The position numbers and the translations under genes are program-made. From the IMG/VR virus record IMGVR_UViG_3300022923_000005, positions 32,001 through 96,000 of that record: DNA of 64,000 nt; one strand, written 5' to 3'. The stretch is from a virus (lineage: Duplodnaviria > Caudoviricetes). Shown here one piece after another: positions 1 to 62,146 of the stretch. Positions within the stretch are counted from its first letter, which is position 1. Each line of letters begins with the position of its first letter. The notes under the pieces are model-generated. The model was not told where the DNA came from. It did no database searches and saw only the letters and a program-made list of their open reading frames with translations.

Positions 1-669
1 AAAGCCTTGTCCACCACTAATCTTATCATCTGGATCAAACATATCCTGTGATGCATAAGTGTGGTTAGTACATACCATACCTACATTGTAACTACCAAAC
101 ATATTAACACAGTTACGTACAAGTGCTGTTAGTGCTTTAGGCTTTCTACCCATATCACCTTTTAAATCACCTTTACCAAACTGATCAACATCTGTTGGAG
201 TTAGTAGCATACCAAGTGAGTCAATTACAAATAATACTTTAGGACGTTCTTCGCCTGCCATATCTCTGTATTCTTTCATAAACTCTGATACTGTTTTAGC
301 AACATCATCAATCATTGACATATTAAGTTTAAGAAGTTTTTCTTCACTTGTGTCAACATCTAATGCGTGTAGCCATTTCTCATCAAGTGCATTCTCTGAG
401 TCAATTAGTACTACAAAGATACCTTGTTCTTGTGCTGATTTTACAATATTGCCGGCTGCAATATAAGATTTACCTGCACCGGATTCACCTGCTAGTACAG
501 TAACTTTACCAAGAGGTACACCTCTATTAAAGTCACCACTAATAAGATAGTTTAGTGCATAGTTGCCTGTGCTGATCCAATCAGTAGGATCATTAAAGCC
601 AATACCTAATCCGTCAATGGACTTTGTAAGGCTCTTTCTAAATTTAGTTACGTCAAACGCTTTTGCCAT
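1..669 (-). CDS. uvsX: RecA-like recombinase UvsX, N-terminal part (runs off the window end; absent from the ORF track)
   Basis: Manual translation from the ATG at 669 gives MAKAFDVTKFRKSLTKSIDGLGIGFNDPTDWISTGNYALNYLISGDFNRGVPLGKVTVLAGESGAGKS. It has a Walker A motif, then IDSENA and VIDSLG RecA motifs. SD-like AAGG upstream. Confidence 0.93.
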   Translation of the reverse strand, partial: MAKAFDVTKFRKSLTKSIDGLGIGFNDPTDWISTGNYALNYLISGDFNRGVPLGKVTVLAGESGAGKSYIAAGNIVKSAQEQGIFVVLIDSENALDEKWLHALDVDTSEEKLLKLNMSMIDDVAKTVSEFMKEYRDMAGEERPKVLFVIDSLGMLLTPTDVDQFGKGDLKGDMGRKPKALTALVRNCVNMFGSYNVGMVCTNHTYASQDMFDPDDKISGGQGF

Positions 670-687
670 AATTACCTTTCCTTTGTT

Positions 688-748
688 AAAGTATGAGAGA
701 CCTCGCTGGTTACCGTACGGAGGTTTTTGCCGGAACTCTCATAAACTC
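688..748 (-). ncRNA. Structured intergenic RNA element between gp32 and uvsX
   Basis: Outer stem UAUGAGAG/CUCUCAUA encloses an inner stem ACCUC/GAGGU; there is no proper U-tract. Confidence 0.45.
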
Positions 749-751
749 TTT

Positions 752-1759
752 TTATTGCTGACGGTTGCGAATCATTGCAAGAATGTCTTGCGCACGACCC
801 GATCCATTGTCCTCAGTAGTTGCAGTTTCTGCCGCTGGTGCTGCTGCTGGTGCTTCAGTTACAGGCGCTGCTGCTGGAGCAGGTTCTGCCGCTGGAGCAG
901 GTGCAGGAGTTACCGGAGCACTTGCTGCTGGTGCTGCTGCCTTATTAGGATCGCCAGTTGCCTGACTCATTCCCGCTGGACGGAAATATTGACCCCAACG
1001 TTCCGGATCATATGCTTCACCATCAACTGATGCTTCAAACATTTCCTTCATTACTTGAAGCTCAACTTCACCTGGCTTCTTAGGAAGGAAATCATTTAAG
1101 TTAAACAACCCGTGTTGTTCAACTGCTGCATTCTCTGTATCATTTAATGCACGTTCTTTACGTGACCATTGTGATGTAGAGTAGTCAGCATAACCACCTT
1201 TTGATGTTTTCTTAATACGGAAGTCAACACCACGAAGATAATCTGTTGGCAATTCTTCCAACTCTGGATCCATCAAAGCACCTTTAATGATTTGATAAAT
1301 CTGTGGACCAATAATAAACCTACGGATAGGATTCTCAGGTGTTCTCTCTTCGTTAAGAGGATCGTCTGTTACAAACCCTTGGAAAATGTACGAACGCTTT
1401 TTCCAATATTTACGTCCCATATCTTCTAGTGATTTGTCTTTAAACCAACCACGTACCTCAGAAAGAATTGGACAAGTAGTACCATCGTTGTACATTTCCA
1501 CACACGGAACTTGCACAATAGTATTACGACTGTCTGTTTCTCCTTTGATACCTGCGAATGGTAATTTAATCATCGCACGTTCTACCCAAAAGAATGTGTT
1601 GTCAGCGTTGCCGTCTGGTAAGAATCTTACCACGGCTTCTCTGCCTTCTTGCATATTCCAATGTGGGTAAATTGCGTTGTCACCGCCTCCAGTAGAATTA
1701 CCAGATGAGCGATTGTTTGCTTCTTGCAGTTTTGCACGAATTTCTGCTAATGATGCCAT
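752..1759 (-). CDS. gp32: Single-stranded DNA-binding protein gp32
   Basis: VRFLPD, CP..., KYWKKRSY and DFRIKKT..GYADYSTS motifs; Ala/Pro-rich linker; adjacent to uvsX; SD GGAGG. Confidence 0.9.
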   Translation of the reverse strand: MASLAEIRAKLQEANNRSSGNSTGGGDNAIYPHWNMQEGREAVVRFLPDGNADNTFFWVERAMIKLPFAGIKGETDSRNTIVQVPCVEMYNDGTTCPILSEVRGWFKDKSLEDMGRKYWKKRSYIFQGFVTDDPLNEERTPENPIRRFIIGPQIYQIIKGALMDPELEELPTDYLRGVDFRIKKTSKGGYADYSTSQWSRKERALNDTENAAVEQHGLFNLNDFLPKKPGEVELQVMKEMFEASVDGEAYDPERWGQYFRPAGMSQATGDPNKAAAPAASAPVTPAPAPAAEPAPAAAPVTEAPAAAPAAETATTEDNGSGRAQDILAMIRNRQQ

Positions 1760-1819
1760 TTGTTAGCCTCCTTTGTTTGCCTAATAAAAAATGTCATTTT
1801 ATGCCTAATGCATATATGT

Positions 1820-1848
1820 ATTATATGCAACTTTATTTATCTTGTCAA
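1820..1848 (-). promoter_or_regulatory. Consensus sigma70 (early) promoter for gp32, with an ATAAATA late-type element inside the spacer
   Basis: TTGACA (1848-1843), a 17-nt spacer, then TATAAT (1825-1820). Confidence 0.85.
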
Positions 1849-1882
1849 GTGTATTTTTAACTAAATGTGATTTTGTTTAGCC

Positions 1883-1912
1883 AAAAGAAAAGGATCCTAA
1901 GATCCTTTCTTT
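1883..1912 (-). terminator. Intrinsic terminator downstream of pqqA
   Basis: AAAGGATC-TTAG-GATCCTTT followed by TCTTTT. Confidence 0.7.
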
Positions 1913-1966
1913 ATTCACAGTCCAATGTTTCTAACAATCTGTGTATATCTACTTCTACTTCTTTAT

Positions 1967-2038
1967 CTATCGGTTGGCTACATACATCGTTACTTCGAAG
2001 CCAAATCTCATCTCTGTTGCTATTGGTTTTGTCCACAT
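1967..2038 (-). CDS. pqqA: Coenzyme PQQ precursor peptide PqqA (23 aa; below the ORF-track cutoff)
   Basis: Translation [23 protein letters not shown]: canonical MWxKP start, R-x-G-x-E-V-T-x-Y with the E-x-x-x-Y core, and typical length. SD AAGGA lies just upstream. Confidence 0.93.
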
Positions 2039-2059
2039 AATGTTTTCCTTTATAAAGTG

Positions 2060-2100
2060 AAAAAAAATAGTGTAGCAGTTTCCTACTACACTATTATTTA
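2060..2100 (-). terminator. Intrinsic terminator of the upstream 733-aa gene, overlapped by a TAAATA late promoter for pqqA
   Basis: AATAGTGTAGTAG-GAAA-CTGCTACACTATT with the 3' arm running into a T8 tract; TAAATA at 2100-2095. Confidence 0.75.
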
Positions 2101-2135
2101 AACATCTTTACGTAAAAAATCAATACGTAAAATCA

Positions 2136-4337
2136 TTAAAACATACTAAGTTGTTTAATTCTTTCAAGTTCTTCTAAGTCTTCTGCGCCTTGTTCTTGTG
2201 CAGGAGCCATTCTTTCTACCATCTTACGTGCAACTTGCTCAGCCTGTTCACCAAACTTTTTGCCTACCATAGTAGCAACACCTTCTGGTCCTTTTGGAAA
2301 AGTGCCTGTATTTTTATCATAAAAAGATTTAATAAATTCTGCTAAACCTTCTAGTGTATGTTCTTCACCATCTGAAGTTTTAAACTTAGTGCCTTTCTTA
2401 GCACCTGCTGCTTTCATTTGTCTTACTTTTTGTGAAAACTCATTGCCTTCAGTTTCTTGGCTTTCCATATCCATAATATCGCCTGCGATATCACCGTGAA
2501 ACTCTTGTCTATCAATTTCGTGTCTCACTTTATCAAAGCCATCTGTTTTAATTTTTTCAATGTAGTCTTGATAAATTTTGTCTGCATAGGATTCGTCTGG
2601 CTCGTTGCTACCTGTGATTTCATCTTCAAGTCTTTTAATACATTCTTCTGCATCATCACAATCTTGAATAATTTCCATTCCTGTAGTAACTGCTAAATCC
2701 CAAGCATTGCCGCCTTCTGCAACTTCAACTGATTCTTCTTTGTTAAGTAATTCTTCTTGATGTTTTTTAAGTTCTTCAATGCTATCAAACTCGCCTGTAA
2801 TCTCATTGTCTTTAATGCTATAGAATTTGCCACCTTTATTAATAGCAGCAAGTCCATACTTGTTAAAACCTTTTGACATATCTTCTTGTTGTGGTTCAAC
2901 TTCGTCTGCTCCTACAGCAGGTTCGTCTGCCATATCACCGAAATCTAATTCACCTAGTACGTCTGGCGCATTTTCTTCGATCCACGCTTTAAGCAAAGGT
3001 CTTACATCAGCGTTAGCATCTTCAGTTGCTTTTGCTTTAATATCTTGCTCTAGTTTTGGATCATCGATAATGCCTTCTAAACTTGTAATTGCGTTTGTGC
3101 CATCAACGCCTGCTGCAAACTCTTGGCTTGTAAGTTCATTTAAACTTTTTACCATATCTGCTTTTTCTTCATCATCTGCAATTTGGATTGGACTTTCTTC
3201 GCCTAATGCGTCTACCCAACTTTCAAATTTTTCAAAGCCCGGTAGTGTATCGATTGTGTCTTCGTGTTCTTCAGCAAGTTTTGGTTCAGCCTCTGCCGTC
3301 ATACCGACTATGTCGTCATAGCCTACTGTTTCTTCTTCTTTCATTAATCTATGAATTACTGGGAATACATCAGTTAAGTCCTCTTTAAAGTTCTTAACAG
3401 TAAACATATCTTTGTACTGCTCCATCACATCATCGTCTACTTCTACGTCTGCTGTTGCCTCAAATGATTCTTTAAAAGCCTCATAGTATGACTGTTTAGA
3501 TAATTTTCCAATTCTTTCTCTGAGAGTGTCAAGTTGTACTTTACTGCGTTCAACAATTCGATTAGTGTCGGAGTTCATCAAATCGTTGCGTACAACATAG
3601 CCTGTAAATGTTTTAAGTTGAGCAATTTCTTCACTCATCTTAACAATGCTTTCACCAATTTCATCGTATGGTGCGCCACCGTTCGCTACGTGACGTTGCA
3701 TTGCTCTTGCACCTGCTAAGTGAACGAAAGGATATTTAAATCTTTCTCCTGATTCGTTCTGTACAAATAGTGCAGAAATATTTCTTGATCTTGCACCTGG
3801 TTTTAATTCCATATCATCAGCAAGTTTTTTGCTGTGCTTGATAATAAGTTTCGTATCTTCTAGTTTCTGGAAACTTTGTGTTTTAGTTCCATATAAATTA
3901 CTCTCATTCATTACATTCTCTCCGACAGGTTTTGTAATTGTATCATTGTCTGACGCTGGGTTTGCATATTGACTAAGGAAAGCATAATCTCTTTTATCTA
4001 AATTATCCTTTGCAATATCTCTTGTGTCAAATGCTAGTAGTCTACGTTTTGCGAACTTTCTTAATTCTCTCAAAAACCCATACCAACCATCTTTTTGGTC
4101 TCTGTCCATACCCTCAGTAATACCATTGGAAAAGTATACTTTCATTGAGTTTGGCTCTGCAAGACTAATACTTACGTGTCCAATTTTCTTATCTTCTTCC
4201 ATATAGTCGAAGTCAAAGAAACGTGCATCTTCAGGGTTAATAGTAATTTGTCCTGAATCATCACCAAGTTTTAGATTAGAAAATCTACTTCTAACCTTAA
4301 AAAATAAGTCTGTTGCTATATTATTAGTTGCGTCCAT
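2136..4337 (-). CDS. Large acidic hypothetical protein, possibly a head-internal/core protein (start revised to ATG 4337)
   Basis: Long ORF, very Asp/Glu-rich. The C-terminus ELERIKQLSMF resembles the scaffold C-terminus IRRLAGLKI. TAAATA-N5-ATG at 4337. Confidence 0.6.
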   Translation of the reverse strand: MDATNNIATDLFFKVRSRFSNLKLGDDSGQITINPEDARFFDFDYMEEDKKIGHVSISLAEPNSMKVYFSNGITEGMDRDQKDGWYGFLRELRKFAKRRLLAFDTRDIAKDNLDKRDYAFLSQYANPASDNDTITKPVGENVMNESNLYGTKTQSFQKLEDTKLIIKHSKKLADDMELKPGARSRNISALFVQNESGERFKYPFVHLAGARAMQRHVANGGAPYDEIGESIVKMSEEIAQLKTFTGYVVRNDLMNSDTNRIVERSKVQLDTLRERIGKLSKQSYYEAFKESFEATADVEVDDDVMEQYKDMFTVKNFKEDLTDVFPVIHRLMKEEETVGYDDIVGMTAEAEPKLAEEHEDTIDTLPGFEKFESWVDALGEESPIQIADDEEKADMVKSLNELTSQEFAAGVDGTNAITSLEGIIDDPKLEQDIKAKATEDANADVRPLLKAWIEENAPDVLGELDFGDMADEPAVGADEVEPQQEDMSKGFNKYGLAAINKGGKFYSIKDNEITGEFDSIEELKKHQEELLNKEESVEVAEGGNAWDLAVTTGMEIIQDCDDAEECIKRLEDEITGSNEPDESYADKIYQDYIEKIKTDGFDKVRHEIDRQEFHGDIAGDIMDMESQETEGNEFSQKVRQMKAAGAKKGTKFKTSDGEEHTLEGLAEFIKSFYDKNTGTFPKGPEGVATMVGKKFGEQAEQVARKMVERMAPAQEQGAEDLEELERIKQLSMF

Positions 4338-4348
4338 ATAAGTATTTA

Positions 4349-5938
4349 TCAAAAACCGCCAGATACGAATATCGGCAATGGATACTCGTCGTCAGTCATT
4401 CTCTCCGTCATTTTTTCATATATTTTTGGATCCCAGTTTGCTAATTGATCTGCCATACGCATAATTAGCAATACTGCTGATACTAGATCGTCGTGTTCGC
4501 CTGTTTTTGCATTGTAACTGACACCTGTTGCTACAAATGTCTTAAGTTCAGATATCAAAGGTTTACTAGATATTGACATTTTGTCTCTTTCCAATGCATT
4601 TTTAAATAAACTACACGCTGTAATTTTAGTCTTGTGTGTAGTATTAAATCCTTTTCTATAACGCCTTACGTGTCCTTTTCTAATAGGTTCACTTAAAAAT
4701 AATCCATTAAAGTTTTCTTCGCCAATGTCAGTAATAACAACAAGTGCTGCTTCACCTATTGTGTTATTTTCTACACTATAGTAAACAGTAGGATTAGGAT
4801 TGCCGCCTGCAATTTGTTCGTTAGTAATATATTTTAAAATATCTTGAAGCACTCTAATCTGTTGTTGTACAGGAGTCAAATTATGTCGCCATTCGCCAAC
4901 TTGTTTCATTGCTGGCATTTCAAATATTTGTATTGCAGCGTAGTCACCGCCTGTACCTAAACTAGGATCAAGTGCAATTAAGTGTGTTGCTTTAGGATTA
5001 ATTTTACTATACCAACGTGTTTGTCCTGTATTAGCAATAGGCTCTTTGCCTTCAAGTGTTGCTAGTTTAACACTGTTAATTAATGTTTCATCAAATATTA
5101 AGAACTCACAATCAAACTCACGACGAAATCTTTCTTCGCCAATCTTTGCACGTTCTTCGTTTGCCCAATCATCATCTCTATCAGGATGTTCTGTCCACGG
5201 AGCAAAGTAAGGATAGAAACCGTTCGTACCTACTTTCTGATCATTGCCGTGTTCGTCAAACTTTTTATTTGCTTCTGCCCAAATCATAGCAAACTGATCT
5301 TCATCTGAGTTTGGTGTGCTTGTAACGATTGCTTTACCACCTGTTGACAGTGTAGGAGAAAGTGCAGTCCAAAACTCTTTGGCTTTCTCTGGCGGTTGCA
5401 CAAATGCAAACTCATCACAATATATTAATGAAAGTGATTTACCACGTCCAGTATCTTCTGTTGTAGTAGTTGCTTGTATTCTACTACCATTATCAAATTC
5501 AATTGTGTTTCTGTTATATGTATAGATACCTGCACGTATAAAGTCTGGTAAAGTTTCGTAACCGAATCTATATCTATTCATAATATCCTGCGCACCTGTA
5601 TATTTGTGTGCAGCAATTAAAACTTGTGATTCAGGTGTAAACATAGTGTACCATAGTAGGTAACCAGCAGCACAAGTTGTTTTACCCATCTGTCTTGGTA
5701 ACATAGCAACACAATATCTATTTTCTGCGTATGCTTGTATTAGTTCTCTTTGAAATCCGTATGGTACAAACTTCATTGATCCTTTTGTAGGGTGTTGAAT
5801 AGTTAAAAAGTTTTCACAGAAATATAATGGTCCTGTAATAGGATCCATACAAGCCTCTAAGTGCTTAACTTCTTCAAGTGTATATTTTTGTTTTTTATGG
5901 GCCTTCTTAATTTGAACGCCATCTAAACTCTTTGCCAT
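4349..5938 (-). CDS. gp17: Terminase large subunit gp17
   Basis: LPRQMGKT (Walker A), LIYCDEFAF (Walker B), TSTPN, FRREF, ALDPSLG..GD and HDDLV nuclease motifs. Confidence 0.95.
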   Translation of the reverse strand: MAKSLDGVQIKKAHKKQKYTLEEVKHLEACMDPITGPLYFCENFLTIQHPTKGSMKFVPYGFQRELIQAYAENRYCVAMLPRQMGKTTCAAGYLLWYTMFTPESQVLIAAHKYTGAQDIMNRYRFGYETLPDFIRAGIYTYNRNTIEFDNGSRIQATTTTEDTGRGKSLSLIYCDEFAFVQPPEKAKEFWTALSPTLSTGGKAIVTSTPNSDEDQFAMIWAEANKKFDEHGNDQKVGTNGFYPYFAPWTEHPDRDDDWANEERAKIGEERFRREFDCEFLIFDETLINSVKLATLEGKEPIANTGQTRWYSKINPKATHLIALDPSLGTGGDYAAIQIFEMPAMKQVGEWRHNLTPVQQQIRVLQDILKYITNEQIAGGNPNPTVYYSVENNTIGEAALVVITDIGEENFNGLFLSEPIRKGHVRRYRKGFNTTHKTKITACSLFKNALERDKMSISSKPLISELKTFVATGVSYNAKTGEHDDLVSAVLLIMRMADQLANWDPKIYEKMTERMTDDEYPLPIFVSGGF

Positions 5939-5943
5939 ACAAG

Positions 5944-5951
5944 TATTTATA
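5944..5951 (-). promoter_or_regulatory. T4-type late promoter TATAAATA upstream of the terminase
   Basis: Exact T4 gp55 consensus, 5 nt before the ATG at 5938. Confidence 0.8.
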
Positions 5952-5956
5952 GAAGA

Positions 5957-5980
5957 AAATAGGCTCCGAAGAGCCTATTT
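5957..5980 (-). terminator. Intrinsic terminator with a C(UUCG)G tetraloop
   Basis: AAATAGGCTC-TTCG-GAGCCTATTT followed by TCTT. Confidence 0.8.
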
Positions 5981-6001
5981 GGATAATATGAAACTTATGA
6001 T

Positions 6002-61603: not shown

Positions 61604-62053
61604 TTAAGCGTCTTCAGTGAAGTCGTCGTCATCAGTACCAGTTAAGGTATTGTCATCACCTGCTTCTTCAACTTGTGCTGCGCCATCTGAAGTAGATGTT
61701 GCAAAGTTCCAAGGAACAGTCAAACCGTCATATGCGTTTGAACCTGTTGCTGTAGGTGCTGATAGTGTTGCTTTCTTTCCAGCAATTTTACTTACTAGAT
61801 AAGTTTCACTGTCGTCCATTTTAAACGAAATACACATTTCACCTGCTGCTAAGTTTGCTGGCAATTTACCAGTTGTTAGTACACAAGTATATTCGCCTGC
61901 TGTTTCAATTTCTTCGCATACAAATTTCTTTGAACCTTTTTGCTTTACGATATAACCTTCTTTAACTGCTGTGTCGTTATGAAAGTTTACTTTGATTTCA
62001 GATCCAGCCGCTGTTGGCTCTCCGAATAATCTTTTGTTTAGTGGTCTTCCCAT
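61604..62053 (-). CDS. Conserved-looking virion protein (start revised to MGRPLNK, 62053)
   Basis: SD AGGAG before ATG 62053; G.IVKQKG..KF motif. Confidence 0.65.
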   Translation of the reverse strand: MGRPLNKRLFGEPTAAGSEIKVNFHNDTAVKEGYIVKQKGSKKFVCEEIETAGEYTCVLTTGKLPANLAAGEMCISFKMDDSETYLVSKIAGKKATLSAPTATGSNAYDGLTVPWNFATSTSDGAAQVEEAGDDNTLTGTDDDDFTEDA

Positions 62054-62146
62054 TTGTTTTCTCCTATATAAGTAGTCCAATCCGGGTTCTATCCGGTACG
62101 CTGTGGGTTAAACAGCATAAGTCCGCCTTGCGGCTCGCTATCTGAC
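62054..62146 (-). ncRNA. Structured 5' leader
   Basis: After TAAATA (62157-62152): GCC-GCAA-GGC, UAUGCUGU/ACAGCGUA and CCGG/CCGG hairpins; GC-rich against an AT-rich background. Confidence 0.5.

Follow-up and report, generated by a model that had tools for sequence, protein, structure and literature searches.

We identify a stand-alone pqqA gene, encoding the peptide precursor of PQQ, on a small mobile cassette of a jumbo myophage that probably infects coastal Methylophilaceae, and we consider it highly likely that this is a genuine phage gene supplying precursor to the host. The window, i.e. the whole stretch of 64,000 nucleotides analysed, comprises bases 32001-96000 of a linear 132,571-bp IMG/VR record (IMGVR_UViG_3300022923_000005; 36.9% GC).

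A 23-codon ORF encodes a true PqqA

The 23-aa peptide that an earlier note on this DNA had quoted as PqqA was recovered exactly, on the minus strand at 1967-2038. The product matches the Pfam PqqA model PF08042 (42.1 bits, cut-off 21.1, E 7.8e-11) and the NCBIfam equivalog TIGR02107 (41.7 bits, cut-off 20) at full model length and at about twice the curated cut-offs. The HMM search proposed in that note thus bore out the assignment, and both curated sequence models confirm ORF 2038..1967 as a true PqqA. The first 6 kb hold 81 ORFs of at least 20 aa, which scales to about 900 for the window, and a chance match is excluded.

PQQ is made from the Glu and Tyr of a Glu-x-x-x-Tyr pair in PqqA, and one peptide is consumed per PQQ made. 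In the phage peptide these cross-link residues are Glu15 and Tyr19 (E-V-T-M-Y); the N-terminal leader W2-T-K-P5 and the R-x-G motif (R11-F-G13) are also present. The gene departs from the usual location of pqqA in that it does not adjoin pqqBCDE. Because most Methylophilaceae pqqA copies are likewise orphans, this position is not disqualifying.

The pqqA-bearing phage genome

TerL is 54% identical to that of the Pseudomonas jumbo phage PA5oct and its relatives, and we assign the record to the PA5oct-like jumbo myophages. CheckV puts its completeness at ∼38%. A second IMG/VR record, G001 (356 kb, 96% complete), is collinear with it over ∼100 kb. Megablast of window positions 1-6000 against GenBank phages gave no match. 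The DNA is almost completely present in a dozen 2018 salt-marsh metagenome runs and one seawater run; words sampled from the 6-kb stretch are present to 94-98% in more than a dozen DNA runs, and six salt-marsh metatranscriptome runs contain 51-70%. The window also contains an Rfam RF02980 match, freshwater-2 RNA, at 62051-62137 on the minus strand (64.8 bits, gathering score 49.9), although the samples that yielded this phage are from salt marsh and coast.

Phages that carry pqqA and their hosts

A degenerate-pattern scan detected pqqA in at least 119 IMG/VR contigs, with the ORF intact and 23-27 aa long in all of them. The eighty contigs among the matches listed come from 76 different metagenome ids, counted from names. 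The commonest neighbours of viral pqqA are genes for exonuclease, primase/helicase, endolysins, Sak-like annealing protein, MCP, DNA polymerase, TerL and portal; the carriers are real phages of several lineages.

The peptide type (WTKP...) gave at least 120 matches when one genome per prokaryote species was searched. Among the matches listed (80 titles), 52 bear the name of the Methylophilaceae or of one of their genera, 24 carry unspecific beta/proteobacterial MAG labels and four are others, which upholds the earlier description of the peptide as the Methylophilaceae type. The closest bacterial PqqA is identical at 20 of 22 positions after the Met, and the differing positions also vary among hosts. 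In a class-wide tally, PqqA identity followed a gradient from the Methylophilus centre genome (83-87%) to most others (55-74%); genomes G306, G318, G151 and G049 had PqqA matches of 57-59% only and support none of our conclusions. The host genus is not resolvable from the peptide, since Methylophilaceae genera differ in PqqA only at variable positions.

Twelve peptide matches were obtained in 50,697 GenBank phage records. Nine are cultured phages whose isolation hosts were OM43 or LD28 Methylophilales, namely Venkman, P19250A, MEP301, MEP401, MEP402 and four Melnitz records; these carriers span podo-, sipho- and myovirus genomes. The remaining three are one uncultured spring virus and two Acinetobacter-phage MAG records (64% identity). 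The latter hold PqqA-like ORFs of Acinetobacter phage MD-2021a (CAKLQF020000010.1, 108210-108275, and CAKLQH020000055.1, 419-484), and phage pqqA may not be confined to phages of methylotrophs. The suggestion of an OM43/Methylophilales-like host is thus supported at the level of the family: a Methylophilaceae host is well supported by these sequence comparisons, and our best guess, from the peptide type, the cultured-phage matches, the coastal habitat and the 37% GC, is that it would be OM43-like.

The earlier expectation that standard annotation misses the gene also holds for the GenBank phage records. In Melnitz-1 (MZ577095.1; L267:1495-1569) pqqA is intact and overlapped by no annotation except a hypothetical protein on the opposite strand; its intact counterpart in P19250A (KX815270.1; L268:1501-1572) lies in an annotation gap and has WTTP in place of WTKP. 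The gene is unannotated in these two cultured OM43/LD28 records inspected and in most of the other records matched, because it is shorter than gene callers usually accept. Phage pqqA is common and mostly unannotated. P19250A has been said to encode none of the reported auxiliary genes (PMC7678222); as regards pqqA, that statement is not true.

Cassette layout and expression signals

The features of the cassette and its surroundings are as follows.

2136..4337, minus: upstream neighbour, virion structural protein (phrog_13484), a late gene; likely ATG at 4337 with TAAATA-N5 ahead
2123..2138, minus: upstream box TAATGATTTTACGTAT, cassette-specific, overlapping the TAA stop of the structural gene (2138-2136)
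2095..2100, minus: TAAATA, putative core of a late-type promoter, 57 nt ahead of the pqqA start
2058..2095, minus: structural-gene terminator, a 13-bp hairpin with a T8 run (-18.1 kcal/mol, z -8.3)
2046..2050, minus: Shine-Dalgarno sequence AAGGA, 8 nt ahead of the pqqA start (AAGGAG in relatives)
1967..2038, minus: pqqA CDS, 23 codons plus TAG (ORF list and PF08042/TIGR02107 match)
1911..2036, minus: overlapping ORF of 41 codons in the +2 frame, starting at a GTG inside ATG-TGG and ending in ...RLLETLDCE and a stop
1880..1909, minus: intrinsic terminator closing the cassette (-12.1 kcal/mol, z -3.1)
1820-1848, minus: perfect sigma-70 promoter of the gp32-like gene (TTGACA-17-TATAAT)
752..1759, minus: downstream neighbour, gp32-like ssDNA-binding protein (phrog_1192)
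669..1, minus: UvsX, beyond the gp32-like gene and running off the window

The gene therefore sits between a late gene and gp32, as had been described. Of the expression signals claimed for it, the Shine-Dalgarno sequence and the terminator were found; for its own promoter the evidence is a conserved box and TAAATA, and the sigma-70 promoter scan detected no site directly upstream of pqqA. From this conservation, a promoter of its own is plausible.

In the whole record TAAATA precedes an ATG with a spacer of exactly 5 at 17 sites, 12 of them ahead of ORFs of at least 80 aa, and TAAATA itself is under-represented (121 observed, ∼262 expected). We read TAAATA-N5-ATG as the late-gene signature of this phage genome. 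Late genes with this signature lack a Shine-Dalgarno sequence (e.g. minus-strand starts 4337, 5938, 7756 and 10233), which implies that the late mRNAs would be near-leaderless. Unlike these genes, pqqA has its TAAATA 57 nt upstream together with a Shine-Dalgarno sequence, and the terminator hairpin of the structural gene falls within its putative 5' leader.

The box is followed, ∼22 nt on, by TGTT-TAAATA-ATAG, and this module accompanies pqqA at two genomic sites in relatives. Among the matches listed, 39 of 131 viral pqqA copies and 5 of 127 bacterial ones have the box within the 160 nt upstream, where by our own calculation chance would give about one match per set. Specific to pqqA cassettes, which it marks in unrelated phages and in a few of the host copies, the box could serve to bind a regulator or be a piece of a captured host promoter. 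A general promoter class of the genome, built on the box or on the conserved tail described below, was considered and rejected because the 132-kb record has a single occurrence of the box.

RNA-library contigs cover the whole pqqA ORF in run X15 (1920-2127) and part of it in run X18 (2002-2153), both at depth 2-3. In such assembled contigs strand and transcript ends are invisible, and at this low depth DNA carry-over is possible; since both also extend upstream of the TAAATA, read-through from the upstream late gene may contribute to them. Runs X16 and X17 gave no contig across pqqA, an absence that is no proof of silence. Contig depths were 3-7 for the structural gene and 18-128 for gp32, the latter far deeper than its late neighbour. 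A gp32 contig from run X15 (1652-1809) ends at 1809, near the start predicted from the sigma-70 promoter.

In syntenic relatives and several unrelated viral contigs, a structured leader of ∼60 nt lies between the promoter region and the pqqA Shine-Dalgarno sequence; it is absent from the window's own pqqA. Positions are L020:802-865 (plus strand) and L092:6654-6717, L017:956-1019 and L079:4640-4703 (minus strand), with further examples in L054, L114, L042, L039 and L043. The fold consists of two stacked stems with compensatory double changes in 8 of 12 pairs. An Rfam search with the conserved leader from relatives returned no family. A covariance model found three further weak viral matches, each directly upstream of pqqA, and three weak matches in bacterial Methylophilaceae MAG loci, one directly upstream of pqqA (L186) and two ∼220 nt upstream (L138, L140).

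A candidate second reading frame overlaps pqqA

The +2 frame is open through all of pqqA and ends 18 codons past the pqqA stop in ...DIHRLLETLDCE and a stop codon (1911). Within the clade this ORF is 36-47 codons long. A tail of the form [RK]LLE[TS]x(x)DC[EV] plus stop follows pqqA in 20 viral cassettes representing 12 distinct nucleotide variants; 15 of the 19 tail loci outside the window belong to relatives of the phage, in which the cassette occupies one or the other of two genomic sites. The tail RLLETxDCE was not found in the 127 bacterial pqqA copies examined among the matches listed. Across its nine core codons pS is 0.76 and pN 0.07. Among the matches listed, only 7 of the 110 viral genes of the first scan have a +2 frame that continues beyond the pqqA stop, and five of these seven carry the tail; in bacterial copies the frame does so in only 3 of 131.

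Codon choice inside pqqA was compared at 'danger' positions, i.e. codons where a third-position T creates a stop in the overlapping frame. T-ending codons occupy 5 of 46 such positions in tail-bearing and 215 of 415 in tail-less genes (Fisher p 3.5e-8), counts that overstate independence, as the tail-bearing cassettes are related; at safe positions the proportions are 30% and 28%. Five representatives with 75-90% mutual identity have T at 0 of 21 danger and 19 of 70 safe sites. Within the same gene F12 is TTT in 10 of 11 and F14 is TTC in 10 of 11, a contrast that, as a pattern of codons, would be hard to explain otherwise than by constraint on the +2 frame. This avoidance of stop-creating codons shows that the +2 frame is kept open in tail-bearing cassettes, and suggests selection on it. 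The chances appear evenly balanced that pqqA of the jumbo clade is dual-coding, for the PQQ precursor and for a second small peptide that would start at GTG and share its ribosome-binding site. Pfam search of the 41-aa product found nothing. RNA structure was considered as the cause of the conserved tail; stems drawn by eye in four sequences fell in different registers and coding constraint is preferred. The tail could also be read as an 11-codon mini-ORF, M[QH]RLLETQDCE, whose start codon is present in most cassettes, but the window has ATA at that position. The overlapping frame is the one element of the cassette that may be new.

The cassette might be kept mainly for the 41-aa peptide, or for a PqqA-like peptide that acts on host PqqD/E as a decoy or regulator, and not for PQQ precursor. 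The stop-avoiding codons and the low pN of the tail speak for a product of this kind, yet ∼90% of viral pqqA genes (first scan, among the matches listed) have no tail while PqqA is conserved in all, and the +2 frame closes before the pqqA stop in 103 of 110 (among the matches listed). The cross-link Glu and Tyr are kept, although loss of these residues would be expected in a decoy. We therefore think it unlikely that another product is the main reason for the cassette, and note that a PQQ precursor and another product are not mutually exclusive.

Selection and mobility of the cassette

Over 111 distinct nucleotide versions among the matches listed, mean pS is 0.66 and pN 0.14; the scan pattern fixes eight PqqA residues, and the unconstrained positions are also conserved. 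Glu and Tyr are invariant in the 111 viral variants, both residues being required by the pattern itself. Compared with the syntenic relative L079, 9 of 14.2 synonymous and 2 of 51.8 nonsynonymous sites have changed. These substitution patterns show the peptide to be under purifying selection, with synonymous sites near saturation.

In the jumbo clade pqqA is found at three different intergenic sites.

Site 1: between the structural gene and gp32 (the record, L020, L092, L017, L079)
Site 2: beside a homolog of genome ORF 94512-95732 (L093, L083, L076, L062)
Site 3: at 5.9 kb in G001

The flanking terminators, the box and putative TAAATA promoter that travel with the gene, and the multiple sites mark pqqA as a mobile, moron-like cassette. 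Such a gene might have been captured from the host chromosome and be carried without benefit: dispersed orphan host copies are numerous and easily captured, and within one phage clade the cassette occupies three or more sites. A neutral passenger would not be expected to keep its ORF intact in all of at least 119 viral contigs scanned, to show strong purifying selection in spite of saturated synonymous sites, to conserve its Shine-Dalgarno sequence and start context, or to occur in every cultured OM43/LD28 phage record matched, whether podo-, sipho- or myovirus. Carriage without benefit is thus very unlikely, and supply of precursor to the host remains the reading we prefer.

The remainder of the pathway was not found

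A profile search of the 132.6-kb record returned no PF13360, PF01011, Radical_SAM, PqqD or TENA/PqqC, and PF01011 was not found in five further pqqA-bearing records. The record and G001 were also searched by tblastn, together with G005, a complete 66-kb phage bearing pqqA. The queries were PqqB/C/D/E from three Methylophilaceae operons (the L121 set was verified at 388, 334, 91 and 517 bits) and three methanol-dehydrogenase-like proteins with PF01011 matches from Methylophilaceae genomes. None matched at E 1e-3 in any of the three, nor did the same queries match the flanks of 119 viral pqqA genes among the matches listed. The absence of another pqq gene, noted before for the window, extends to the whole record, and the proposed check for pqqB-E and a dehydrogenase in the rest of the genome found none in the record or in collinear G001.

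With the record itself only ∼38% complete, the peptide-only state rests on 96%-complete G001; these searches support the view that phages of the pqqA-bearing jumbo clade would carry the precursor gene only. The missing ∼60% of the genome could in principle encode further pathway members, whether pqqB-E or a methanol dehydrogenase, and the Lake Baikal viruses VP_266 and VP_139 do carry methanol dehydrogenase and radical SAM genes alongside PqqA. This is most improbable, as both G001, which has pqqA, and the complete G005 are devoid of PqqB-E homologs and PQQ dehydrogenases. An assembly chimera or host contamination, already judged unlikely in the earlier note and for which we found nothing in favour, can be dismissed: pqqA has phage core genes within 100 nt on either side and is flanked by genes for TerL, a structural protein, SSB and UvsX, the independent contigs L020, L092, L017 and L079 of other samples show identical junctions, the 6-kb stretch is nearly complete in many DNA runs, and no pqqB follows pqqA.

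Proposed role

We propose that the phage makes the precursor peptide only. The Glu15-Tyr19 cross-link would be formed by two host proteins, the chaperone PqqD and PqqE, a radical-SAM enzyme. PQQ would be completed by peptidases of the host together with PqqB and PqqC, and the cofactor would then serve periplasmic methanol dehydrogenases. Expressed by the phage, the precursor would keep or raise the supply of PQQ while host transcription falls. The timing of this expression, the processing by host enzymes and the benefit to the phage are what we infer.

Methylophilaceae have 3-12 pqqA copies and a single pqqBCDE (Beck et al., 2014; PMC4109929). Five Methylophilaceae genomes searched here hold 2-6 copies, and pqqBCDE adjoins only ∼12 of the ∼130 bacterial pqqA copies fetched among the matches listed. 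The hosts thus themselves amplify precursor gene dosage, to which the phage adds one copy. Extra precursor may be helpful since one peptide is destroyed per PQQ and hosts keep 2-12 copies. As a counterpoint, it is not evident what the phage would gain, because PQQ is stable and hosts are already multi-copy for pqqA.

Relation to known systems

The concept of phage PqqA is already published, first in 2020, and is not new here. Coutinho et al. (2020; Microbiome 8:163, PMC7678222) described PqqA in a T4-like Lake Baikal virus of population VP_266 with 35% GC and a predicted Methylophilaceae host, and regarded viral PqqA as an auxiliary gene boosting PQQ for methanol oxidation. The literature check called for in the earlier note therefore confirms phage pqqA, with the same rationale, and removes its novelty; our literature search found no report of viral pqqA besides that study, and the Melnitz paper names PQQ only as a medium supplement. 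VP_266 resembles the present phage in being T4-like, with ∼35-37% GC, a predicted Methylophilaceae host and an encoded PqqA. The Baikal viruses differ in coming from freshwater and in encoding also methanol dehydrogenase and (VP_139) radical SAM genes, whereas the present phage is from salt-marsh and coastal samples and has no other pqq or dehydrogenase gene, nor does its near-complete relative.

The cultured OM43/LD28 phages share with it an intact, unannotated, stand-alone PqqA of 23-24 codons (77-87% identical), but have genomes of 35-44 kb or, in one case, that of a 141-kb Kyanoviridae myophage, as opposed to the PA5oct-like jumbo phage here; Melnitz has no RLLETxDCE tail, since a tRNA gene comes directly after its pqqA. 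Orphan Methylophilaceae pqqA genes encode the same peptide type (up to 20 of 22 identical) away from pqqBCDE, and a few share the upstream box TAATGATTTTACG; unlike the phage gene they are chromosomal and without the RLLETxDCE tail. The overlapping frames recall lambda Rz/Rz1, in that two frames of one short stretch are both apparently under selection; unlike in Rz/Rz1, the candidate frames would share one ribosome-binding site, with starts 2 nt apart (ATG/GTG in ATGTGG).

Implications

The gene has the context of an auxiliary metabolic gene, being a host-type metabolic gene with phage genes on both sides in a bona fide phage genome, and pqqA may be the smallest such gene known in phages. If the overlapping frame is real, overprinting would gain a further, compact example, here on the precursor gene of a RiPP. 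As pqqA marks phages of methylotrophs, it would be a useful signal for host prediction. Its multiplication in hosts and its carriage by phages point to the supply of precursor peptide, not of enzymes, as the limiting step that both amplify, and would link viral infection with methanol turnover in coastal and fresh waters.
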